Shown here: positions 34,211 to 46,683 of the stretch, piece after piece | Numbering within the stretch: the stretch's first letter is position 1 | How the letters are laid out: each line of letters opens with the position of its first letter | NCBI GenBank assembly: GCA_965368975.1 | Contig: CBDUPA010000027.1 | Span: forward strand, 1-64,000 | From: an uncultured bacterium | GTDB lineage: Bacteria > Acidobacteriota > Thermoanaerobaculia > Multivoradales > JAHZIX01 | Length of the DNA stretch: 64,000 bases | Direction: 5' to 3' | Notes under the pieces: generated by a model | The model's input: the letters and a program-made list of their open reading frames with translations, nothing else | Database searches by the model: none | Told to the model about the DNA's origin: nothing | Translations under genes and position numbers: made by a program

Positions 34211-34239
34211 TTGACCCTCCGTGATCGCACTACTATAAT
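34211..34239 (+). promoter_or_regulatory. Sigma-70 promoter of the precursor-MNIO operon
   Basis: TTGACC-N17-TATAAT. Confidence 0.75.
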
Positions 34240-34279
34240 GGCCTTAATTCGTCAAGTTTCACTATTCAAGGAGGTTGGA

Positions 34280-34477
34280 ATGAAGAAGAGAACCCTCAGG
34301 ACCACCGAGATCCTCGACAGCGCAGCGCTGGAAGCTGTCGTCGGCCAGATCGAGACGACCATCTCCACCGGCGAGCAGCCGGAAGAGCTGCATCCCAAGT
34401 GCTGCTCGGGCGTGCACAACGTGACGCTCGGCACCCGCACCTGCAGCATCGCCACGTCTTACGAGCCTCTCGGCTGA
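34280..34477 (+). CDS. Putative RiPP precursor (65 aa) for the MNIO enzyme
   Basis: AAGGAGG RBS; MKKRTLRTTEILDSAALEAVVGQIETTISTGEQPEELHPKCCSGVHNVTLGTRTCSIATSYEPLG. Confidence 0.8.
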   Translation: MKKRTLRTTEILDSAALEAVVGQIETTISTGEQPEELHPKCCSGVHNVTLGTRTCSIATSYEPLG

Positions 34478-34485
34478 GGTTCCCG

Positions 34486-34521
34486 CGCTGCGGCGGTGGG
34501 TGCTCGCCCATCGCCGCGGCG
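34486..34521 (+). other. 15-bp stem-loop between precursor and MNIO gene (attenuator or mRNA stabiliser)
   Basis: CGCTGCGGCGGTGGG-tgctcg-CCCATCGCCGCGGCG. Confidence 0.6.
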
Positions 34522-34561
34522 TTGGAGTGTGTTTCGCCTTTTGTTTGCGAGGAGACCTGCC

Positions 34562-35536
34562 TTGACCACGCCCCGCGCTGAGAGTTCAACTCCCACCATC
34601 GCACCCCCGCTCGCGGTGGCCGAGGCGCCGGCAGACGACCGTGCTGATCGTCTGGCCGCCCTGCCCAAGCTCGGTGTGGGCCTGAGCTTCGAAGGAGCGC
34701 TGCGCCAGTTCGTCTACGAGAACGCTGACTGCTTCGACTTCCTCGAAGTCGTCCCGGACTCGATGTGGAACGATCTGGGTCCCGGCGAGATCCCGCGCTA
34801 CGAGGTCAACGAGACGCAGGCCGCCCTGCTCGACTGGGTGCACGAGCGTATGCCGATCATCGCCCACAGCGTGGGTCTGTCGATCGGCAGCGCCGATCAA
34901 TTCGACCTGGAGCACGTGGCCCAGATCGCGCACTGGCAGCGCAAGTTCGGCTGCCCCTGGCACAGCGATCATCTCAGCTTCAACCGCTTCGAAGATCCCC
35001 ACGGCGACACCATGGAGGTCGGCATCACGCTGCCCGTGCCCTATGACGAAGAGGTGTTGCAGATGATCATCGAGCGGGTCAAGGTGATGCAGCAGGAAGT
35101 GCCGGTACCGTTCCTGCTCGAGAACAACGTCTACTACTTCAAGATCCCCGAGCAAGACCTGGACGAGGCCACTTTCCTCAACCGGATGATGCACGAGGCC
35201 GACTGTGGTCTGCTGCTCGATCTGCACAACGTCCACGTCAACGCCAAGAACCACGGCTTCGACCCTTACGAGTTCCTCGAAGGGTTTGACTTGAGCCGGG
35301 TGGTCGAGCTGCACATCGCGGGCGGTCTGGAAATCGACGGCGTCTACATGGACGCGCACAGCGGTCCGTGCCCGGACGAAGTCTGGGACTTGCTGCGCTG
35401 GATCATGCCGCGCACTCCGAATGCCTGCGGTGTCGTGTTCGAGGCTTTCGGTGGTTACGCCAAGGACATGGGCACCCAGGCGATCCGTGCCGAGTTGACC
35501 CAGGCACGCGACATCGTGATGCCTTTCATGTCCTGA
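34562..35536 (+). CDS. DUF692 multinuclear non-heme iron oxidative enzyme (MNIO)
   Basis: HSVGLSIGS, SDHLSF, LLENN, LLLDLHN..VN, ELHIAGG, DAHS, VFE metal-ligand motifs; AGGAG before TTG. Confidence 0.92.
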   Translation: MTTPRAESSTPTIAPPLAVAEAPADDRADRLAALPKLGVGLSFEGALRQFVYENADCFDFLEVVPDSMWNDLGPGEIPRYEVNETQAALLDWVHERMPIIAHSVGLSIGSADQFDLEHVAQIAHWQRKFGCPWHSDHLSFNRFEDPHGDTMEVGITLPVPYDEEVLQMIIERVKVMQQEVPVPFLLENNVYYFKIPEQDLDEATFLNRMMHEADCGLLLDLHNVHVNAKNHGFDPYEFLEGFDLSRVVELHIAGGLEIDGVYMDAHSGPCPDEVWDLLRWIMPRTPNACGVVFEAFGGYAKDMGTQAIRAELTQARDIVMPFMS

Positions 35537-35557
35537 CCTGGTTTCGGCATACCGATC

Positions 35558-36193
35558 ATGTCTCTACAAGGCTTCCAACAGGCGCTGGCGGATCTGGTGG
35601 CGTCGCCCGAGATGCGAGCCCTGGCTTGCCAGGATCCGGACGCTGCCTTCGCGCGCTACCAACTGAACTCCAAGGATCGCCGCCGTCTCGAAGCCCTGGC
35701 GCACGACCGCCGTGGCATGGGTGCCGGCAACCTGATCCACAACTCCTTCCGGCTCGGCCTGGTCGCCGAGACGCTCCCCAAGACCCTCAACCTGCTGGGG
35801 CCGGCACGCTCGGAGCCGTTACTCAAGAAGTACTGGCACACCACGCCGCCCAAGGACTTCCGCTACTCCAACGAGGCCTTTCGCTTCGCCGATCACCTGC
35901 GCCTGCAGCAGGATGAGGGCGAGCTGGACGAGCCGTTCCTGGAAGAAGTCCTCAACTTCGAGCTCACCACCTTGAGTGCGTTGCAGCACAAGAGCCCACC
36001 GCCCAAGCTGCTCGAGTTCCGCCACGACCCGGAAGTACTGCTGCCGGCGTTGGAGGACCCGGACGTCGATCCGCGGGCGCTGGACCTGGAGGAGGGCGAG
36101 TACTACGTGCTGGTGCGCAGGCTACCGTCTGGAGACCTCGACGCGCGTCCGATTCCGCCGGCGCTGGCGGCGCAGTTGATGGGGTCGGCCTAG
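35558..36193 (+). CDS. MNIO partner protein (DUF2063/RRE-like)
   Basis: Directly after DUF692; FQQALADLV..P, LP.T..LLG, EA.RFA..L, L.FE pattern typical of MNIO partners. Confidence 0.7.
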   Translation: MSLQGFQQALADLVASPEMRALACQDPDAAFARYQLNSKDRRRLEALAHDRRGMGAGNLIHNSFRLGLVAETLPKTLNLLGPARSEPLLKKYWHTTPPKDFRYSNEAFRFADHLRLQQDEGELDEPFLEEVLNFELTTLSALQHKSPPPKLLEFRHDPEVLLPALEDPDVDPRALDLEEGEYYVLVRRLPSGDLDARPIPPALAAQLMGSA

Positions 36194-36203
36194 CGGAACG
36201 CGC

Positions 36204-37415
36204 TCACAAGTACCGGATCCACGACTCCCGCCGCCGCCGCTTGACCCCCGCGAACCACTTGCACAGCGGGTAGTGCAGCGCCACCACCAGGAGCCAGACG
36301 CCATAGACCAGCAGTAGGCTCGGCCTGTAGCTCTCGGGCCAGTTCTGCGGTGCTTGCTGCCACCAGTAGACCTCGCCGTAGCGCAGCTGCGAATAGCCGA
36401 CGGCGAGCAGATGGATCACCACGAAGTGGATCAGGTAGAAGAAGAGCGGTACGCGGCCGAAGACCAGCAGGAACTGTGCGGTCTTGCCGCGGAAGGCTTC
36501 CAGGTGTGGGAGTAGCCACAATGCCGGCCCCAGGGTCATCAGCAAGAACAGTAGCGACGGTGGGTACTTGGTGGTGTTGAGGAAAGACAGCAGCGTGAAC
36601 AGAGGCCCACGATCATCGGCGATCCAGGGGCTGGGGTCGCCGTAGAGGTTCCAGGCGCGCAGCAGGACGAAGGCTACGGTCGAGCCGATGCCGAGCACCA
36701 GCAGGCGCCGTTGACGTTCACCGGCGCCCAGGCCGCCGGCTGCCGGAGCGGTGAACCAGCGTCCCAGCAGGTAGCCGAGCGCCATCACGGCCGGCCATGG
36801 TAGCAACGGGTAGACCACCATGAAGCCGAAACCGTCGCCCACGCCCAGCCAAGCCTGCTGGTGTAACAGCGCCCACAGATAGGCGAGAGGCCGTGCTAGT
36901 TCTTGGGCACGGATTCCGTCCAGCAGGTTGTGGCCTGCCACCAAGAGCAGGGACGCCGTGAGCAACCACCGCTCGTCGAGCCCTTTCTCCAGTAGCCAGA
37001 CGAGGCCGGCGAGCAGAACCATCGACCAGCCGAGAATCCAGATGACCTGCACGAAGCCCCAGCCCATCGGGTAGCTCCACCAGCTCAAGTTCATCCAGGT
37101 CAGCTCGAGAAAGATCAACCAAAAGCCGCGCGTGACCAGGAAACGGCGCAGCGCCGGTAAGCCCTGGCGTTGACCGTAGAGGTAGGAGCCGGTTCCAGCG
37201 AGCAAGACGAAGACGGGGGCGCAGAAGTGGGTAATCCAGCGCGTCAGGAAGAGCATTGGTGGAGCTTGGTCCAGTTGCTCGGGTTGGAAAGGGAAGGGGC
37301 CGAAGAAGTCGCGCACATGGTCCAGCGCCATGATCACGATCACCAAGCCGCGCAGCAGGTCGAGGCTGTCGATGCGGTGGTTGCGGGACTTGGGGGTTGT
37401 GGTTTCGGTCTGCAT
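36204..37415 (-). CDS. DUF1624 / heparan-alpha-glucosaminide N-acetyltransferase-like membrane protein
   Basis: RIDSLDLLRGLVIVIMALDHVRD, TRWITHFCAP.FV.LAG, KYPPSL. Confidence 0.85.
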   Translation of the reverse strand: MQTETTTPKSRNHRIDSLDLLRGLVIVIMALDHVRDFFGPFPFQPEQLDQAPPMLFLTRWITHFCAPVFVLLAGTGSYLYGQRQGLPALRRFLVTRGFWLIFLELTWMNLSWWSYPMGWGFVQVIWILGWSMVLLAGLVWLLEKGLDERWLLTASLLLVAGHNLLDGIRAQELARPLAYLWALLHQQAWLGVGDGFGFMVVYPLLPWPAVMALGYLLGRWFTAPAAGGLGAGERQRRLLVLGIGSTVAFVLLRAWNLYGDPSPWIADDRGPLFTLLSFLNTTKYPPSLLFLLMTLGPALWLLPHLEAFRGKTAQFLLVFGRVPLFFYLIHFVVIHLLAVGYSQLRYGEVYWWQQAPQNWPESYRPSLLLVYGVWLLVVALHYPLCKWFAGVKRRRRESWIRYL

Positions 37416-37552
37416 GTGCGGCTCCGTTCGACTAGAAGTTCTCACCTGACTACGGGGCTGGCCGTCGCCAGGTTGCTGAAGTCACCGTGCTACGCTTCCA
37501 TAATCTCGAAATCCGCTTCCCTTTCCGGGAAGTGAAACTAGGAGGAGACATC

Positions 37553-37717
37553 ATGAAGAAGCACACCAAGGCTCAGAAGCTGCAGCTACATCGCGAGACC
37601 CTGACCACCATCACCGAGCTGCAGTCGGTGCAGGGCGCCGGGTCGCAAAACCGGGCTTGTGCGACGTACACCGAGATCATTGGTCCTTGCGTGCCGACGT
37701 ACAACTGGCAGTGCTGA
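37553..37717 (+). CDS. Putative RiPP precursor (54 aa), KLxLxRETL-type leader
   Basis: AGGAGG RBS; MKKHTKAQKLQLHRETLTTITELQSVQGA|GSQNRACATYTEIIGPCVPTYNWQC. Confidence 0.8.
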   Translation: MKKHTKAQKLQLHRETLTTITELQSVQGAGSQNRACATYTEIIGPCVPTYNWQC

Positions 37718-37809
37718 TGCACTGAAACTATGGCGGGCGGGGTGGCTATGGCAAAGCGGCGGGTTACGGGTAGAATCCTAAGTTCGAAAGCACTCTTCCG
37801 GAGGACCCC

Positions 37810-39186
37810 ATGACCGAGCATGCACCGACTGATCTGCCTGCAGCCAACTCGCCCGTCCCTGTCCACCGTGTCCTCGACCTGGTCGATCCCGCGACGCAGC
37901 AGCTCGGTGATCTGAGCCTCGACGAGGCTCGCACCCGACTGCTCGATGCCGATCCGGAGGGCGTGTTGGAAATCCCCGGTTCGTTCGCGCTCATCGCTCG
38001 CGACGGCGAGCGCGTGAGCTTGGCGCGCAGTCTCGACCGGCCGTTGCGCTACTTCCTGGCCAAGGAAGAGGCGGGGCCGATGTTGATCGTCGCCGAGCGC
38101 ATCGACGAGATCCGTGCCTGTCTCGAAGAGCATGGCTACGGCGGTCAGTTCCATCCGACCTACACGCGGATGGTGCCGGCGCACCACGTGACGCAGCTGC
38201 GCCTGATCGGTTGTCCGGACCCGAATCCCGTCTACCGTCGCTTCTTCGCGCCGGAGCGCGCCACGGGGCCAGCGGATCTCGACGCACTCGGGGTGGCGTA
38301 CGTGGGTGCTCTGTGTGCCGAGCTGCGCGATTGGTTGCTGGCGGTGCCCAAGGAGGAGCCGCTGGGAGTGCTCTTCTCGGGCGGCCTGGACAGCGGTGCG
38401 GTGCTGCTGTGTCTGCACCAGCAGCTGCTCGAGCTGGGGCACAGCCCGGCGCGGCTGAAAGCGTTCACGCTGAGTGTCGATGGTGGTGGGGCCGACCTGG
38501 CGCAGGCACGCGAGTTCCTGCACCGCGTCGATCTCGAGTTCTTGCTCGAAGCCGTCGAGGTAGAGGCTGCCGCTCTCGATCCGCTCGAGGCGGTAGCGGT
38601 GATCGAGGACTACAAGCCGCTCGACGTCGAGTGCGCGACGCTGCAGCTCGCCCTGGTACGGGCTCTGCGCGAACGCTATCCGTGCGACCCCTCGACCAGC
38701 TGGACCTACCTGGTCGACGGCGACGGTGGCGACGAGAATCTGAAGGACTATCCGATCGAGGAGAACGCCGAACTGACCATCCGCAGCGTGGTCAACAACT
38801 CGATGCTCTACCAGGAAGGCTGGGGCGTCGCGGCGATCAAGCACTCGCTGACCTTCTCGGGCGGTTACAGTCGGGGCTGCGTGCGCACTTTCGCACCGGC
38901 TCGTCGCTTTGGCTTCGTCGGCTTCAGTCCCTATACGCGGCCGCGCCTGATCGAGGCTGCCGAGAGGATTCCATTTGCCGAGCTGACGGGTGGCGACCAC
39001 GGCAAGCTGTACGCGCTCAAGGGCGAGATCCTGCGTCGCGGCGTCGCCGCCCTGACCGGTCACGAGCTGCCGGTGTTCGAGAAGCGTCGCTTCCAGCACG
39101 GAGCGGCACCGGAGAGCGTGTGGCGGCGGCTCTTCGACGTCGACCCAGAGGTCTACCGCCGCCACTTCCTGAGCCTCTACGCCTGA
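37810..39186 (+). CDS. Asparagine-synthetase-like ATP pyrophosphatase (no N-terminal Cys glutaminase nucleophile)
   Basis: PP-loop LFSGGLDSG, DGDGGDENL, C-terminal K.ILR...KRRFQ. Confidence 0.85.
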   Translation: MTEHAPTDLPAANSPVPVHRVLDLVDPATQQLGDLSLDEARTRLLDADPEGVLEIPGSFALIARDGERVSLARSLDRPLRYFLAKEEAGPMLIVAERIDEIRACLEEHGYGGQFHPTYTRMVPAHHVTQLRLIGCPDPNPVYRRFFAPERATGPADLDALGVAYVGALCAELRDWLLAVPKEEPLGVLFSGGLDSGAVLLCLHQQLLELGHSPARLKAFTLSVDGGGADLAQAREFLHRVDLEFLLEAVEVEAAALDPLEAVAVIEDYKPLDVECATLQLALVRALRERYPCDPSTSWTYLVDGDGGDENLKDYPIEENAELTIRSVVNNSMLYQEGWGVAAIKHSLTFSGGYSRGCVRTFAPARRFGFVGFSPYTRPRLIEAAERIPFAELTGGDHGKLYALKGEILRRGVAALTGHELPVFEKRRFQHGAAPESVWRRLFDVDPEVYRRHFLSLYA

Positions 39187-39190
39187 GCCA

Positions 39191-40237
39191 GTGAACTCCC
39201 CTGTGCCAGGTGCCGGGTCGCTCGCCCAGCGCGTGCGTGCGTTGCGCTCGCCGAAGCCTCGGCACGATCCCTGGCGCGCGCAAGGGATCGCGATCGAGGA
39301 GGAGCGCCAGGCCGACGGGTCGCGTCGGCCGGCGGTGACGATCTTCCTGACGGGTGCCGAGTGCCCATTCGCGTGTGTCTACTGCGACCTGTGGCGCTAC
39401 ACCCTCGACGGGCCGACACCGCCCGGCGCCCTCGCCGTGCAGCTACGGCGGTCGCTGACAGAGGTAGCGGCGGTGGTCGGGCGCGAGGAGCTGTCGGAGG
39501 CGACGCTGAAGCTCTACAACGCGTCCAACTTCTTTGAGCCCCGTGCGGTGCCCCCCGGGGACCTGGAGCAGCTACTCGACCTCTTGGCTCCCTACGGCCG
39601 CGTGGTGGTGGAGAGCCACCCGCGCCTGGTGGACGAGCGGTGCCGCGAGTTCGCGGTCGGCCTGGCAGCCCGCGGCGGCGGCTGCTTGGAGGTGGCGATG
39701 GGCCTGGAAACCGTGCACCCGGAAGCGTTGCCTCGGCTTGGCAAGCAGACGTCGGTCGAGATCTTCGATCGCGCGGTAGCGACCTTGCGCGACAGCGGCC
39801 TGGCCCTGCGAGCCTTTGTGCTCGTGGGCACACCTTTCGTGCCGGCCGCCGAGCAACTGCACTGGACGCTGAGCTCGGTCGAGTACGCGCTGCAGGCGGG
39901 TGCCGAGCAGGTGTCCCTGATTCTGGTGCGCGATGGCAACGGGTATCTCGACTCCCTGGCCACGACGGACTTCCAGCGGCCCTCCTTGGCGCAGCTCGAG
40001 GAGGCGCTGGACCAGGCGCTGCGCCGTCAACACGAACGCCGGGCCAAGAAGGGCGCGATCCGCGAAGGGGAGGGACGAGAAGGTGTCGTGATCGCCGATC
40101 TGTGGGATGTCGAGCGCTTCTCGACCTGCGACGCCTGTATGGAGGCTCGGTACAACCGACTGGAGCGCATGAACCTCTTGGGCGAGCTGCCGCCGCCGGT
40201 GGCATGCACGCGCTGTGGCTCGTGCCATGAGCTCTGA
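39191..40237 (+). CDS. Radical SAM protein, RaSEA/Elp3-like
   Basis: CPFACVYC; KLYNASNFF, VVESHP, EVAMGLET; C-terminal CDAC...CTRC. Confidence 0.85.
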   Translation: MNSPVPGAGSLAQRVRALRSPKPRHDPWRAQGIAIEEERQADGSRRPAVTIFLTGAECPFACVYCDLWRYTLDGPTPPGALAVQLRRSLTEVAAVVGREELSEATLKLYNASNFFEPRAVPPGDLEQLLDLLAPYGRVVVESHPRLVDERCREFAVGLAARGGGCLEVAMGLETVHPEALPRLGKQTSVEIFDRAVATLRDSGLALRAFVLVGTPFVPAAEQLHWTLSSVEYALQAGAEQVSLILVRDGNGYLDSLATTDFQRPSLAQLEEALDQALRRQHERRAKKGAIREGEGREGVVIADLWDVERFSTCDACMEARYNRLERMNLLGELPPPVACTRCGSCHEL

Positions 40238-41879
40238 GGCGAGGGCGACTGGCAGCAGGACCTGGGACGTTGTCATCGCCGGTGCCGGCTTTGCTGGCAG
40301 TCTCTTGGCGCGGATCCTGGCGACGCAGGGGTGGCGCGTGTTGCTGGTGGAGAAGGGGCGTCATCCGCGCTTCGCGCTCGGCGAGTCGTCGACGCCGCTG
40401 GCCAACTTCGCGCTCGAACGTCTGGCTCGACGCTGGAAACTGCCGGACCTGCACGCGCTGGCCGCCTACGGCCGATGGCGGCGCGACCTGCCCGAGTTGC
40501 GCCGTGGTCTCAAGCGGGGCTTTACGTTCTTCCAACATCGCTCCGGCGTGCCGTTGGAGAGGAGCTGCGATTTCGCCGCGGGAGACGGCCGTCTGCTGGT
40601 GGCAGCCAGCCCCGAGGACGCCCTGGCGGACAGTCACTGGCTGCGTGCCGACGTCGATCACTTCCTACTCGAGCGGGCGATCGAGGCGGGCGCCGGGTAC
40701 CGGGGCGGCGTCGAGTTGACGTCCGTGGTGGTCGACGAAGGGGGCGTTACGGTCGGTGGTGGAGACTTCGAAGCTCGCGCCGACTTCCTGGTCGACGCCA
40801 CCGGTCCCGGTGGTCTGGCGGGGCGGCTGGGTATCGAGGCGGTCGACGCTCCTGTGGCTGAGATGGCGGAGGACGATGCGGGGCGACCGTCGACGCTGCT
40901 GCTCTATGGTCACTTCGAAGGCGTGCGCGATACCGTCGATGTGCTGCTCGAGGCGGGTGTCGAGGTACCGCGCGGCCCCTATCTAGACGACCGGGCCGCG
41001 GTGCACCACCTGCTCGACGAAGGTTGGATGTATGTTCTGCCGTTCGACGAAGGCGCCGCGGGTCAGCGTCTCACCAGCGCCGGCGTCGTGCTGCGTCGCG
41101 GTACCGATCCTGAGCTGTGCGCCCTGGCGCTCGAGGCTCCCCGAGCTGCCTGGACGCGTCTGCTCGCTCGCTATCCGACGCTGCAGAGCGTCTTCGCGAC
41201 GGCCACCGAGCATCGTCCCCTGGCCGTGCTGCCACGCCTGCGCCACCGACTCAGCGCCTCCACGGATGCCGCTTTCGGGCGTTGGCTGCTGCTGCCGCAC
41301 GCCTATGCGTTCTTCGATCCGCTGTACTCGACCGGCCTGGCGTGGAGCCTGCTCGGCGTCGAGCGTGTCGTGGACCTGTTCCAGCGAGCGCCGCGCGAGG
41401 CCGCCGGCATGCCGTCACGGGTGGGGCTAGCTCGCTATGCCGAGCTGCTCAGCGTCGAGGCCGACCACGTCGATCGCCTGATCGCGGGTGCCTATCTCGC
41501 GATGGGCGATTTCCAGCTGCTGGCCGCACAGACCCAGCTCTACTTCGCCGCCGCCAGCTTCCAAGAGCTGCGTCAACGGCTGGTGCTTCCTGCGGGGGAT
41601 TCTGCCGCGGCTTGGGAAGGTTTTCTCGGTGCCACCGATTCGATCAGCCGAGACTTCGTCGCCGAGGGAGAAACTCGCCTACGTCAACAGCGAAGTGACT
41701 TCGCGGACTGGGTCGCGTCCGCGATCGAGCCGCGCAACGTCGTGGGCCTGGCGGACCCCGGGCGACGCAATCTCTACCCGGTCGACCTCGATGTGCTGCT
41801 GCGCGATGGGCACCGCCTCGGACTGGATCGTGCCCAGCTACACGCAGCGTTGCCGTTGTTACGGGGCGGTCAACTCTGA
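40227..41879 (+). CDS. Flavin-dependent halogenase-like protein (PrnC/Trp-halogenase superfamily)
   Basis: GAGFAG, HPRFALGESSTP, GLKRGF (putative catalytic Lys), GWMYVLPF (WxWxIP-like), FFDPLYSTG. Confidence 0.8.
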   Translation: MSSEARATGSRTWDVVIAGAGFAGSLLARILATQGWRVLLVEKGRHPRFALGESSTPLANFALERLARRWKLPDLHALAAYGRWRRDLPELRRGLKRGFTFFQHRSGVPLERSCDFAAGDGRLLVAASPEDALADSHWLRADVDHFLLERAIEAGAGYRGGVELTSVVVDEGGVTVGGGDFEARADFLVDATGPGGLAGRLGIEAVDAPVAEMAEDDAGRPSTLLLYGHFEGVRDTVDVLLEAGVEVPRGPYLDDRAAVHHLLDEGWMYVLPFDEGAAGQRLTSAGVVLRRGTDPELCALALEAPRAAWTRLLARYPTLQSVFATATEHRPLAVLPRLRHRLSASTDAAFGRWLLLPHAYAFFDPLYSTGLAWSLLGVERVVDLFQRAPREAAGMPSRVGLARYAELLSVEADHVDRLIAGAYLAMGDFQLLAAQTQLYFAAASFQELRQRLVLPAGDSAAAWEGFLGATDSISRDFVAEGETRLRQQRSDFADWVASAIEPRNVVGLADPGRRNLYPVDLDVLLRDGHRLGLDRAQLHAALPLLRGGQL

Positions 41880-43406
41880 AGTCCGCAACGGAATCGGGTC
41901 ACCGGGCCGGCGCGGCGGTTGTTCGAGCAGTACGTGCAGCAGGTTGTTCTGGAAGTTGGGGTTCTTGATCATCCCCAGGTGGCTGTCGGTGATGAAGATG
42001 GTGCTGGTCCAGGAGACCGGGGACGTCAACCATGGTCCGGCTGCTCCCAGGCTGCGCTCGTCGGCCAGCGCCGAGGCGCGCGAGACGCGGCTATCGCCTG
42101 GTGCGGTCAGCTGAGGGCCAGCTTCTTCCGAGTTCTCGAACAGCAGCTCCAGCTCGCCGTCTTGGACATCGATGATCACCCTGGTCAGCGTCTCGCGATG
42201 GTCGCCGGCGAACAGGAAGACCTGGCTCGGCGGTGGGCGGTCGGCATGGCGATCCAGCGCGATGGCGAAGCGACGAGCGCGATCGAAGGCGGCGTCCATG
42301 AACTCCACCATGCGTTCTCGCCGGCCGGTGCGCTCGGGCTCATTGGGGAACAGCCACTGCAGATAGGGGTCCTGGTTCTGTGCGAAGGGTCCCCAACCAT
42401 GCGCCGCCCACAACTCGCCGTCGTAGAGATCGAGGTCGACGGGCAGGCCCGCCAGGTTGACCATCGGCGCGTTCTCGTTGCTGCCTTTCAGGCGTGGCAG
42501 CAGCTGGTACGAGGCTGGGATCGACGCCAGGTGCACCGGTTCCAGTTTGGGCAGGAAGGGCAGCAGGCGGCGTCCCAGGATCATGCGTTCCAACATCACC
42601 ATGGTGCCGAAGTTGGGCGGCGCCACCAGCACCATCCGGTCGATGTCCTCGGCGCCCGCCCAGGTGATCTCAGCGCCCTCGGGGTCGTCGAGCACGTCCT
42701 TGGTGCCGTAGCGCAGGTAGTAGCGAGCGATCAGGCCGCCCATCGAGTGGGCGACGATATCAAAGCGCACGGGACGTTCGGGCAACCCCTGGCTGGCACG
42801 CCGTCGCTGCACCTCTTGGCGTGCCTCGGCGATGAAGACGCCCAGCTCGGCGGCGTTGGCGGCGTTGTCGCGGCGGAAGTCGTAGACAAAGGTGAAGCAG
42901 CTCTGCGTGTTCTTGCCAGGGTCGGGACCGCCCAGCTCATCTGCCTCGTAGCCGTTCTGACCCAGCAATGCCAGCAACTCGGCATAGACGTCGATCTCGA
43001 CTTCGCCGACACCCGCGTTGGCGCGCCAAGAGCCGAGGGGTGCTGTCGCGATGACGTCGTCGAGCAGGGCCGCGATGTCGCGGTGCGTCGGGTTCGGCGG
43101 CAGGTTCCAGGGGTCGAGCGCCAGACCGCGCACGCCATCCGGGGACGCGAACTCGATGACGTCGCCGCCGAACGACTCACCCCACAGGATCTTCTCGTCC
43201 GTCGAGCGCACCAGTTTGGTGCCGCCGAAGCCGGGAATGACGATCACCGGGTTGCGCTCGACATTGCGCAAGCTCTCTTGGTACACCGTCGGCAGGTCCG
43301 GGCTGGGAAGGCGTCCCAGCTCCTGGCGCACGTAGTTGCAGCCAGCGATCAGCCAGAGACTGCCCACCAGGAGGCACAGGTGCACGGTGCTCGCGAGCCG
43401 TTTCAT
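41859..43406 (-). CDS. Lipoprotein alpha/beta hydrolase (LCAT/PGAP1-like)
   Basis: Lipobox LIAGC; PVIVIPGFGGT; YDFRR; AHSMGG nucleophile elbow; GD.RV; H near C-terminus. Confidence 0.75.
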   Translation of the reverse strand: MKRLASTVHLCLLVGSLWLIAGCNYVRQELGRLPSPDLPTVYQESLRNVERNPVIVIPGFGGTKLVRSTDEKILWGESFGGDVIEFASPDGVRGLALDPWNLPPNPTHRDIAALLDDVIATAPLGSWRANAGVGEVEIDVYAELLALLGQNGYEADELGGPDPGKNTQSCFTFVYDFRRDNAANAAELGVFIAEARQEVQRRRASQGLPERPVRFDIVAHSMGGLIARYYLRYGTKDVLDDPEGAEITWAGAEDIDRMVLVAPPNFGTMVMLERMILGRRLLPFLPKLEPVHLASIPASYQLLPRLKGSNENAPMVNLAGLPVDLDLYDGELWAAHGWGPFAQNQDPYLQWLFPNEPERTGRRERMVEFMDAAFDRARRFAIALDRHADRPPPSQVFLFAGDHRETLTRVIIDVQDGELELLFENSEEAGPQLTAPGDSRVSRASALADERSLGAAGPWLTSPVSWTSTIFITDSHLGMIKNPNFQNNLLHVLLEQPPRRPGDPIPLRTSELTAP

Positions 43407-43607
43407 GCGCTCCATCTTATCCGCAAAATCCGATGTGACCTGCATGTGAGCCTTGCGAGGCGCTTCGGCTGAAGGTAACTCTGGTCCTGGGTGGGTGCCT
43501 GCCTCGCACCTTCCTGTCGATGCTTACGTCCGAGTTCGCAAGAAAGTTACTCGGTGGTGCCCGAACGGCTTGGGTAGTCCGGAGACCTGGTGCTTGGTGT
43601 GGCTCGA

Positions 43608-44300: not shown

Positions 44301-46418
44301 TCAGCCCAGTCCCAAGGCCAGGCCACCCTGGTACGTGACGAAGGCGGCCACCCACGCCAGGACGGTCATGTAGACGAAGAGGAAGATTGCCCACCACCAG
44401 CTCTCCGTCTCCCGTTTGACCACCGCGACAGTGCTCATGCACTGGCAGGCCAGGACGTAGAAAATCATCAGGCTGACCGCGACGAGGGACGTGAACACGG
44501 GTTGGCCGGTGTCGGGGTCGACGTCGTTCTTGAGGGCTTGCCGCAGGCTCTGGCTCTCCTCGTCCGCTTCGCCGACGCTGTAGATCGTAGCCAAGGCACT
44601 CACCGCAACTTCACGGGCGGCGAAGCTGGCGATCACGGCGACGCCGACTTTCCAATCGTAGCCGAGGGGTTCGATCACCGGTTCGATCAGCTGGCCCATC
44701 CAGCCGACGGCGCTGTGCTCGACCTGGTAGGCGGCTGCCTGGTTGGGTGTCACGTCGGCTGGTGGTTCGACCTTGGGGAAGCTGGCCAGGAACCACAGGA
44801 CGATGCTGATTGCCAGGATGATGGTGCCGGCGCGGCTGAGGAAGAGCTTGGAGCGCTCGACCATGCGCCACAGGACATCGCGCAGGGAGGGCAGGCGGTA
44901 GGGCGGCAGCTCCATGACGAAGAGGGAGCGTTCGCCCTTGACCACGAAGCGCTTGAGCACCCAAGCGGCTCCGATGGCGAAGACGACACCGAGCAGATAC
45001 AGGATCAGCAGGGTTGTGCTCTGCGCCGGCAGGATGCCGAACCACATGGCTTGCGGGATGAAGGCGCCGATCAGCAGAGTGTAGACGGGCAGGCGCGCCG
45101 AGCAGGTCATCAACGGGGCGACCAGGATGGTGACGAGACGGTCGCGCGGGTTGTTGATGGTGCGTGTTGCCATGATGCCGGGGATGGCGCAGGCGAAGGA
45201 ACTCAGCAAGGGAACCACCGAGCGGCCGGAGAGGCCGACCTTGCGCATGGCACGGTCCATGATGAAGGCGGCGCGGGCCATGTAGCCGGTGTCTTCGAGC
45301 AGGCCGAGGAAAAAGAAGAGGATGAGGATCTGTGGCAGGAAGATGACCACCGCGCCGACGCCCGCGATCACACCGTCGACCAGCAGGCCACGCAGCGGAC
45401 CGTCGGCCATGCGGTTGCCGACCCAGGCGCCGAGCTCGCCAGTGCCGTCATCGATGGCGTCCATGAAGGGACCGGCCCAGGCGAAGACGGCCTGGAAGAT
45501 CAGCGCCAGGATGGCGACGAAGATGAGCGGGCCTGCCCAGCGGTGGGTGAGCACGGCGTCGAGACGATCGCTGACGCTGAGGCGGTGCTCTTCAGGGTGC
45601 TGGACGGCACGGCGCACGAGCGGACCGATCCAGGCATAGCGGCCGAGCGTTTCGGCCTGGGCGAAGGGCACGCCGGCTTCTTCGAGGCGGCCACGGGCTT
45701 CGCGCACGGTGTCCCAGAAGGTCGCACTGTGGTAGCCGGGGAAGTTGGCGGCGCGTTCGCTGCTCAGGGCGCGCAAGACGTCGGCGGTACGCTGACGCGG
45801 GGTCAGCTGCGGCAGCTCGTCTTGCAGACGCTCGGCCAGCTCGTGGACCGTGTGGGCGACTTCCGGGTCGAGCACCCAGCGCTTGGGAGCCCGCTCGGGC
45901 AGCGGGCCGGCGATGGCGGCACGCAGCTCGTCGAGGCCCTCGCCACGGCTGGCGACCAGCGGCAGCACGGGGACGCCGAGTTCCTCGCTCAGCGCCTCGG
46001 CATCGACCTCCAGGCCGGCGGCAGCGGCGGTGTCGAGCATGTTGAGCGCCACCAGGGTCGGCAGGCCGAGGTCGAGGATCTGGCTGGCGAGGTAGAGGTT
46101 GCGCTCCAGGTTGCCGGCATCGACGATCACCACCACCAGGTCCGGTGTGCGTGACTCGTCGATCAGGCCGAGGAGGGCGCGGTAGGCGATCTCTTCGTCC
46201 AGCGATTCGGGGTTGAGGCTGTAGAGACCGGGGATGTCGACGATCTCGATCGGCTCGCCCTGCGGCCCTTTGGTCATGCCGACCTTGCGCTCGACGGTGA
46301 CCCCCGGGTAGTTGCCGACGCGCTGGCGCAGGCCGGTCAGGCGGTTGAAGACGGTGGTCTTGCCGACGTTGGGATTGCCGGCCAGAGCCACCAGGCGTGG
46401 AGCGGTCGAGGAGGTCAT
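44301..46418 (-). CDS. feoB: Ferrous iron transporter B
   Basis: GNPNVGKT, NYPGVT, DIPG, NMLD G-motifs; gate/TM domain (LEDTGYMARAAF, TCSARLPVY). Confidence 0.97.
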   Translation of the reverse strand: MTSSTAPRLVALAGNPNVGKTTVFNRLTGLRQRVGNYPGVTVERKVGMTKGPQGEPIEIVDIPGLYSLNPESLDEEIAYRALLGLIDESRTPDLVVVIVDAGNLERNLYLASQILDLGLPTLVALNMLDTAAAAGLEVDAEALSEELGVPVLPLVASRGEGLDELRAAIAGPLPERAPKRWVLDPEVAHTVHELAERLQDELPQLTPRQRTADVLRALSSERAANFPGYHSATFWDTVREARGRLEEAGVPFAQAETLGRYAWIGPLVRRAVQHPEEHRLSVSDRLDAVLTHRWAGPLIFVAILALIFQAVFAWAGPFMDAIDDGTGELGAWVGNRMADGPLRGLLVDGVIAGVGAVVIFLPQILILFFFLGLLEDTGYMARAAFIMDRAMRKVGLSGRSVVPLLSSFACAIPGIMATRTINNPRDRLVTILVAPLMTCSARLPVYTLLIGAFIPQAMWFGILPAQSTTLLILYLLGVVFAIGAAWVLKRFVVKGERSLFVMELPPYRLPSLRDVLWRMVERSKLFLSRAGTIILAISIVLWFLASFPKVEPPADVTPNQAAAYQVEHSAVGWMGQLIEPVIEPLGYDWKVGVAVIASFAAREVAVSALATIYSVGEADEESQSLRQALKNDVDPDTGQPVFTSLVAVSLMIFYVLACQCMSTVAVVKRETESWWWAIFLFVYMTVLAWVAAFVTYQGGLALGLG

Positions 46419-46440
46419 GACGACGGTCGGCGCAGCCGCT

Positions 46441-46683
46441 TCAGGAACGCTGATCCTGCGGGCCGGTCAACTCGACCTCGATCGCCGAGGCTTCTTCGCG
46501 GCGCAAGGACAGCAGGTAGCCCCGCACGCGGATCTCCAGCGGATCGCCGAGCGGCGCCAGGCGGACCATCTCGACTTCGGTGCCGGGCAGCAAGCCCATC
46601 TCGAGTAGCCGCACCGGCGGCGTGCTGGTCCAGCTCACCACCGTCGCGCGGTGGCCGGGTTTGACTTCGTGCAGTTGTGGCAT
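46441..46683 (-). CDS. feoA: FeoA
   Basis: RLLEMGLLPG..V...APLGDPL..RVRGY.LSLR. Confidence 0.93.
   Translation of the reverse strand: MPQLHEVKPGHRATVVSWTSTPPVRLLEMGLLPGTEVEMVRLAPLGDPLEIRVRGYLLSLRREEASAIEVELTGPQDQRS

Follow-up and report, generated by a model that had tools for sequence, protein, structure and literature searches.

Does the short precursor-like peptide encoded at position 37553 of this acidobacterial DNA serve as the substrate of three enzymes encoded directly after it, or have two unrelated units come to lie side by side? The stretch analysed here, hereafter the window, comprises 64,000 nucleotides of contig CBDUPA010000027.1 (C27) from an uncultured bacterium of the order Multivoradales, whose assembled genome measures 7.1 Mb and is 99% complete. 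Judged by the source names of homologous proteins, this genome belongs with the Acidobacteriota, close to Thermoanaerobaculia. The three genes in question encode an AsnB-like ligase, a small radical S-adenosylmethionine (SAM) enzyme and a halogenase-like flavoprotein, and are together referred to as the trio. A previous sequence-only reading of the locus had proposed either that the trio modifies the peptide, defining a new class of ribosomally synthesised and post-translationally modified peptide (RiPP), or that it forms a peptide-independent pathway in which ligation is followed by cleavage. Our analysis indicates that the peptide and the trio are, very probably, two unrelated units adjacent by chance, and that the trio would combine ligation, radical chemistry at a C–N bond and halogenation.

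Conservation of the trio across genomes

Within the order, a homologue of the radical SAM protein was identified in 46 of 61 genomes, nearly always in a single copy, as is also the case in the genome of the window itself. Twenty of these 46 loci were retrieved with flanks of 6 kb each; in all 20 the radical SAM gene directly adjoins the AsnB-like gene, and in 17 the flavoprotein gene comes next. The arrangement extends to other lineages. Among 600 candidate stretches from a search of species genomes, at least 581 contain a gene related to that of the AsnB-like protein, and the best 80 loci, which were analysed further, belong to Acidobacteriota, Gemmatimonadota, Verrucomicrobiota, “Deltaproteobacteria”, Multivoradales and one “Lysobacterales” bin. 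Of the 73 loci with at least 1.1 kb of downstream sequence, 69 have the radical SAM gene, and of the 60 with at least 2.9 kb, 56 have all three genes in the order seen here (the other four have the flavoprotein gene only, the radical SAM gene only or, in two cases, neither). None of the genes flanking the trio in the window is shared with other trio loci (tblastn, 20 order loci and best 80 loci), and no gene for a carrier protein, a transporter or another biosynthetic step accompanies the trio consistently; the recurrent neighbours, present in at least 12 loci, are FG-GAP/ASPIC and SusD-like proteins only. The best reading of these data is that the trio is a self-contained operon, conserved over several phyla, which does not need the 37553 peptide. 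The titles and abstract openings that we consulted contain no description of it.

The peptide does not accompany the trio at these loci. We tested 100 of them, combining the 20 same-order loci with the best 80 from the species genomes, using a hidden Markov model (HMM) of the leader segment that the peptide shares with paralogues in its own genome. At E ≤ 0.01 the model matched at none of the 100, its best value elsewhere being E 0.12, and tblastn with the peptide likewise returned no match. A regular-expression match at one locus (L104) was set aside, being a 20-residue frame with no Met/Lys-rich start that the HMM did not recover. The neighbourhood check that the sequence-only reading had itself suggested, for a conserved peptide upstream of the radical SAM homologues, thus found a leader-type peptide at 0 of 100 loci.

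The same discordance is seen between whole genomes. A DNA pattern for the leader, which requires an MKK start and an exact L.L.RET[L/F], occurs in seven of the 61 genomes of the order; its reversed control gave no hits. Of these seven, three contain the radical SAM gene and four show no match to it; conversely, 43 of the 46 trio-positive genomes have no hit to the pattern. Besides that of the window, two genomes combine the pattern with the trio, in each case on separate contigs. Among five trio-positive genomes of other lineages, four have no hit, and in the fifth the nearest of 20 hits lies more than 130 kb from the trio. That leader and trio genomes do not coincide argues against a link acting in trans as well. 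In other genomes, therefore, the precursor does not co-occur with its supposed maturase genes as it would in a RiPP cluster, and the proposal of a new RiPP class is not supported: the trio is widespread without a leader-type peptide.

At the locus itself, the relevant features are arranged as follows:

36204–37445, minus strand: HGSNAT-like acyltransferase gene (Pfam), upstream of the peptide
37553–37717, plus strand: open reading frame (ORF) of the precursor-like peptide, 54 aa, with an AGGAGG ribosome-binding site at 37540–37545, 7 nt 5′ of the ATG
37748–37776, plus strand: promoter-like site ATGGCA-17-TAGAAT, 9/12 consensus matches, between peptide and trio
37810–39186, plus strand: putative AsnB-like ATP-dependent ligase, 458 aa, with its own GGAGGA; Pfam Asn_synthase, Cys-less truncated Ntn remnant and intact PP-loop
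39191–40237, plus strand: small radical SAM enzyme, 348 aa; PF04055 at 30 bits, CX3CX2C at nt 39362–39385
40227–41879, plus strand: flavin-dependent halogenase-like protein, 550 aa counted from ATG, similar to PltM and CtcP
41859–43445, minus strand: lipase-like gene (Pfam), downstream of the trio

The ORF coordinates agree with the layout first described, in which the 54-residue peptide is followed after 92 bp by the AsnB-like gene, after a further 4 bp by the radical SAM gene and, with an overlap of 11 bp, by the flavoprotein gene. The TAGAAT near 37771, previously flagged as a possible promoter element, belongs to the promoter-like site listed above, which is a consensus match only. No terminator-like site between 37717 and 37810 was reported by the motif scan of the window, and no stable fold is predicted for the spacer (z +1.38). 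A search of sequencing runs for 37400–41900 listed none, RNA data included.

Two further observations concern the composition of the trio elsewhere. Large FG-GAP/ASPIC (UnbV) beta-propeller genes stand beside it in 26 of the best 80 loci, mostly in Gemmatimonadota (L046, L057, L058, L063, L064 and 21 others), and are absent from the immediate neighbours in the window; this adjacency could represent lineage synteny or a functional link. A search of long proteins for fusions found ten, all singletons. None was counted as evidence of a real fusion; among them are P0123, in which AsnB residues 5–293, an Arg-rich stretch and a radical SAM part follow one another and which looks like a frameshift artefact, and P0126, a single frame that contains a C-terminal AsnB piece, a radical SAM part and the flavoprotein. 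A single radical SAM relative of 661 aa on one contig (P0124) carries FHA-type domains (PF00498, PF16697).

The three enzymes and their putative chemistry

The AsnB-like protein matches Pfam Asn_synthase at 41 bits over residues 182–320 only, and residues 57–150 form a recognisable remnant of the Ntn domain. It begins MTEHAP and so has no Cys2, while its PP-loop SGGLDS is in place at residues 190–195 (nt 38377–38394), with S190, G191, G192, D194 and S195 invariant in 26 homologues; both features had been correctly recognised at the outset. The protein has the PP-loop of the family and falls short of a glutamine-hydrolysing AsnB, scoring 26.9 bits against a cut-off of 267 for TIGR01536. An assignment as a lasso-peptide or macrolactam cyclase (NF033561) was rejected at 16.9 bits against a cut-off of 300. 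The best match of the predicted structure (predicted local distance difference test, pLDDT, 82.6) in Foldseek is beta-lactam synthetase (E 6e-13, template modelling score, TM, 0.54–0.62), followed by AsnB/ASNS, CarA (E 7e-10) and TsnB9; a phmmer search of solved chains identified no AsnB-family relative at E ≤ 1. Judging from these models, the enzyme resembles beta-lactam synthetase and CarA in having an AsnB fold that would have lost the use of glutamine and would adenylate a carboxylate for attack by an amine. It differs from them in its sequence (12–19% identity), in its shorter N-terminal domain and in the lack of clavam or carbapenem genes nearby. The Cys-less enzyme may join carboxylate and amine within one molecule, as beta-lactam synthetase does, or between two.

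A separate feature of this protein is the segment at residues 313–350 (nt 38746–38859), DYPIEEN..SVVNNSMLYQEGWGV..IKHSLT, which is nearly invariant across phyla, yet is modelled with pLDDT below 50. One possibility is a lid or interface region that takes on order only in the presence of a substrate or partner. The predicted complex of the AsnB-like and radical SAM proteins (score 0.00, mark 0.32) carries no weight for or against their binding.

The radical SAM protein shows both the motif and the TIM barrel typical of its superfamily. Its CX3CX2C cysteines (C58, C62 and C65) are invariant in an alignment of 28 sequences, a C-terminal CxxC...CxxC is also present, and the fold (pLDDT 92.8) matches radical SAM structures at Z 12–16. 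The top VIA match, queuine lyase (Z 16.1, root-mean-square deviation 3.2 over 220 residues), lies within 1 Z of biotin synthase and is thus tied with it. Among curated families, TIGR01210 (RaSEA) is matched at 47.5 bits (E 1e-12) over residues 37–245 only, against a cut-off of 212.15, and TIGR01212 (MnmL/YtqA) at 15.8 bits (E 6e-3), against 180. The resemblance to RaSEA pointed out earlier is therefore real but weak. The curated relatives of the enzyme cleave C–N bonds in modified nucleosides. By analogy, it would abstract a hydrogen next to a nitrogen and cleave or rearrange the C–N bond.

The halogenase resemblance of the flavoprotein was borne out over residues 8–443, which match PltM (E 1e-41) and CtcP (E 1e-37); PrnC itself, the initial point of comparison, was not among the solved chains matched. 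The GxGxxG motif reads GAGFAG (residues 19–24, nt 40281–40298), and K96 (nt 40512–40514), invariant in 62 of 62 sequences, is aligned with the PltM lysine in GIKLGF; the catalytic lysine of PltM is Lys 87. The protein thus shares full-length similarity, the GxGxxG and this lysine with halogenases of the PltM/CtcP/PrnC type, and departs from them in a degenerate WxWxIP motif, considered below, and in its genetic setting, a three-gene operon conserved in hundreds of species in place of a polyketide or pyrrole cluster. The substrates of PltM and CtcP are free phenolic compounds, and a PltM-type flavoenzyme would be expected to halogenate an electron-rich ring in some free small molecule.

Since the trio has no other biosynthetic gene as a constant companion, its substrate is probably a common metabolite. 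The high identity of the AsnB-like homologues in phyla without the peptide (59–76%) likewise implies a substrate shared by those phyla. The earlier suggestion of a peptide-independent pathway that ligates and then cleaves agrees with these results in respect of its independence from the peptide; the chemistry it names is something that we infer.

An unlikely alternative is that the trio acts on a macromolecule. Its target could be a tRNA nucleoside, which would make the trio the bacterial equivalent of ArcS-RaSEA or MnmL/YhcC, or else a protein side chain. ArcS-RaSEA functions in archaeosine synthesis in Euryarchaeota, and MnmL, YtqA and YhcC are radical SAM enzymes of mnm5s2U synthesis. The parallel is that these systems pair a small radical SAM enzyme with an enzyme of group transfer or ligation, and a ligate-then-cleave sequence at a C–N bond would fit the homology of the window's enzyme to TIGR01210 and, weakly, TIGR01212, its sole curated relatives being enzymes of tRNA modification. 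Its top structural match, tied with others as noted, is queuine lyase, whose radical SAM chemistry is directed at a 7-deazapurine; many genomes of the order have the gene, as a single copy, and the sequence conservation of the AsnB-like protein between phyla is very high. However, both scores remain far under their cut-offs, Pfam detects no RNA-binding domain (PUA, THUMP), and the closest solved relatives of the flavoprotein use free phenolic molecules. Moreover, 15 of the 61 related genomes have no match to the radical SAM protein, indicating that the function is dispensable. The trio also differs from ArcS-RaSEA in having an AsnB-like PP-loop ligase in place of ArcS, an added halogenase and bacterial hosts.

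A more specific bacterial scheme can be pictured in which the trio would “ligate, then radically dealkylate”: the glutaminase-less AsnB-like enzyme would use an amino acid as nitrogen donor, the radical SAM enzyme would cut the C–N bond, and the PltM-type enzyme would halogenate. We regard this sequence of steps as a speculative and rather improbable one.

The 54-residue peptide and its paralogues

The peptide has an MKK..KLQLHRETL leader and a double-glycine-type site (VQGA/G), and its core GSQNRACATYTEIIGPCVPTYNWQC contains the 3 Cys, 2 Tyr and 1 Trp originally counted, together with four Ser/Thr. A protein search returned only the peptide itself and one 54-aa homologue, 89% identical, on contigs of ~1 kb; the two differ at five leader positions and at only one in the core. 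Because the homologue keeps the core but for one residue, this conservation indicates that the 37553 peptide is a real gene. Scanning metagenomes with it yielded one locus of 2.3 kb that shares the leader alone (63% identity over residues 1–30) and has a different core and no trio; it says nothing about synteny in the sister species.

Within its own genome the peptide belongs to a large family. The leader HMM matches it at E 5e-11 and identifies 53 small ORFs at E ≤ 1e-3, and a regular expression for the leader recovers 45 members over 31 loci (a 46th row, on contig C6, contains a stop and was dropped). These ~50 paralogues share the leader MKK..KLxLxRETL..GG and have hypervariable cores rich in Cys, Ser and Thr. 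Their neighbours are mixed, including M12 and S9 peptidases, Ser/Thr kinases with ECF sigma factors, MacB/FtsX transporters and an MvdD-like ATP-grasp protein. Against the model for class I lanthipeptide leaders of type L1a (NF038153, cut-off 22), the window peptide scores 16.7 bits and falls below, and two of ten paralogue leaders pass, at 24.4 and 23.3 bits. Two family members adjoin a LanB and two LanC genes (C13:45177–51790), and further LanB- and LanC-like genes, at few loci, and three exporters with a C39 peptidase are found elsewhere in the genome. No LanB- or LanC-like protein is among the six proteins scanned with Pfam around the peptide (34496–43445), and none was matched on the window's contig, all matches being located on other contigs.

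We therefore judge the peptide to lie outside the trio and to be, most likely, an orphan precursor of lanthipeptide type. With four Ser/Thr and three Cys in the core, it could be processed in trans into a lanthipeptide; if it matures at all, this would most likely be the work of LanB/LanC enzymes and of ABC exporters with a C39 peptidase, encoded on other contigs. Such an arrangement would resemble prochlorosin-type systems, in which dozens of precursors with one leader and hypervariable Cys/Ser/Thr cores are scattered over a genome with few synthetase loci, and would differ from them in relying on LanB/LanC (class I) rather than on ProcM (class II).

Maturation of the peptide by the trio in cis, through ligation or cyclisation, radical chemistry and aromatic halogenation, would make it a new RiPP class, maybe through a lineage-specific recruitment; we consider this highly improbable. 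The peptide does share the strand of the trio across a 92-bp gap free of terminator-like sites, its core is rich in Cys, Tyr and Trp, and AsnB-like enzymes serve as lasso-peptide cyclases. Yet the NF033561 score of this AsnB-like protein lies far under the cut-off for such cyclases and its homologues retain their high identity across phyla without the peptide. Pfam (E ≤ 0.01), which divergent RREs can escape, assigns the trio proteins only to the Asn_synthase, Radical_SAM and FAD-binding families and detects no RRE/PqqD or SPASM domain. The absence of a leader-type peptide from all 100 trio loci and of co-occurrence over 61 + 5 genomes argues against it, and with ~50 such peptides in one genome some are expected to lie beside enzymes by chance.

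That the 37553 peptide is instead a second substrate of the neighbouring MNIO (DUF692) RiPP cluster at 34283–36193 is scarcely credible. In favour of this reading, the peptide starts 1.36 kb after the end of the MNIO partner gene, and MNIO enzymes act on Cys-containing peptides. Against it, the opposite-strand acyltransferase gene intervenes, a separate precursor that does not match the leader HMM immediately precedes the MNIO gene, and the C-x-x-C-[ILV]-S-G motif of the upstream peptides in four of six orthologous clusters is absent from the 37553 peptide.

Several points weigh against reading the peptide and the trio as unrelated units with the chemistry given above. The strict DNA pattern misses divergent leaders, finding 26 sites in the window's genome against 53 HMM matches, and searches aimed at this leader may pass over unrelated short precursors with a different leader beside other trios. 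The peptide's position on the same strand, 92 bp upstream with neither a terminator-like site nor a stable hairpin in between, makes read-through plausible, and the Trp, Tyr and Cys of the core are possible targets of a halogenase or of radical SAM chemistry. Maturation in trans by LanB/LanC is, for its part, only what we infer from the rest of the genome. As to the enzymes, the putative chemistry is read from family resemblance only. Foldseek with the radical SAM model identified no close solved relative, returning generic barrels only at TM <0.5 (Elp3, LipA, TsrM, HydE). In the flavoprotein, WxWxIP is degenerate and reads WMYVLP (nt 41025–41042); 61 of 62 sequences retain the first Trp, whereas the second is Tyr in 57, Ile is replaced by Leu in 61 and Pro by Arg in 39, so that most relatives read W-x-Y-x-L-R at this position.

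Neighbouring genes and biological meaning

Upstream of the acyltransferase gene, the window contains the RiPP-like MNIO cluster (34211–36193, plus strand). It encodes a 64-aa peptide with ..HPKCCSG.. in the core (34283–34477), an MNIO/DUF692 enzyme (34496–35536, PF05114 at E 1e-61) and an MNIO partner protein with no family hit (35558–36193), preceded by a strong promoter-like site, TTGACC-17-TATAAT, at 34211–34239 (plus strand, 11/12). Pairs of MNIO and partner genes occur in six relatives at 47–63% identity, four of them with C-x-x-C-[ILV]-S-G peptides seen upstream. Downstream of the lipase-like gene, on the minus strand at 44301–46683, a 705-aa ORF that opens with a G-protein-type GNPNVGKT motif is accompanied by an 80-aa ORF upstream; by eye, the two look like a FeoB/FeoA iron-transport pair.

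For the locus itself, adjacency alone proves a poor ground for pursuing a new RiPP class, and its dismissal spares heterologous-expression effort on the wrong substrate. The peptide family merits attention in its own right, since ~50 leader-sharing precursors facing few lanthipeptide synthetase loci in one genome may represent a combinatorial peptide library. The trio, in turn, is found at no fewer than 581 candidate loci in species genomes from several soil and marine phyla, and its product could be a widespread halogenated metabolite. If the scheme of ligation followed by radical dealkylation were true, that product would be a so far unrecognised halogenated metabolite or modified nucleoside common to hundreds of species of Acidobacteriota, Gemmatimonadota and Verrucomicrobiota.

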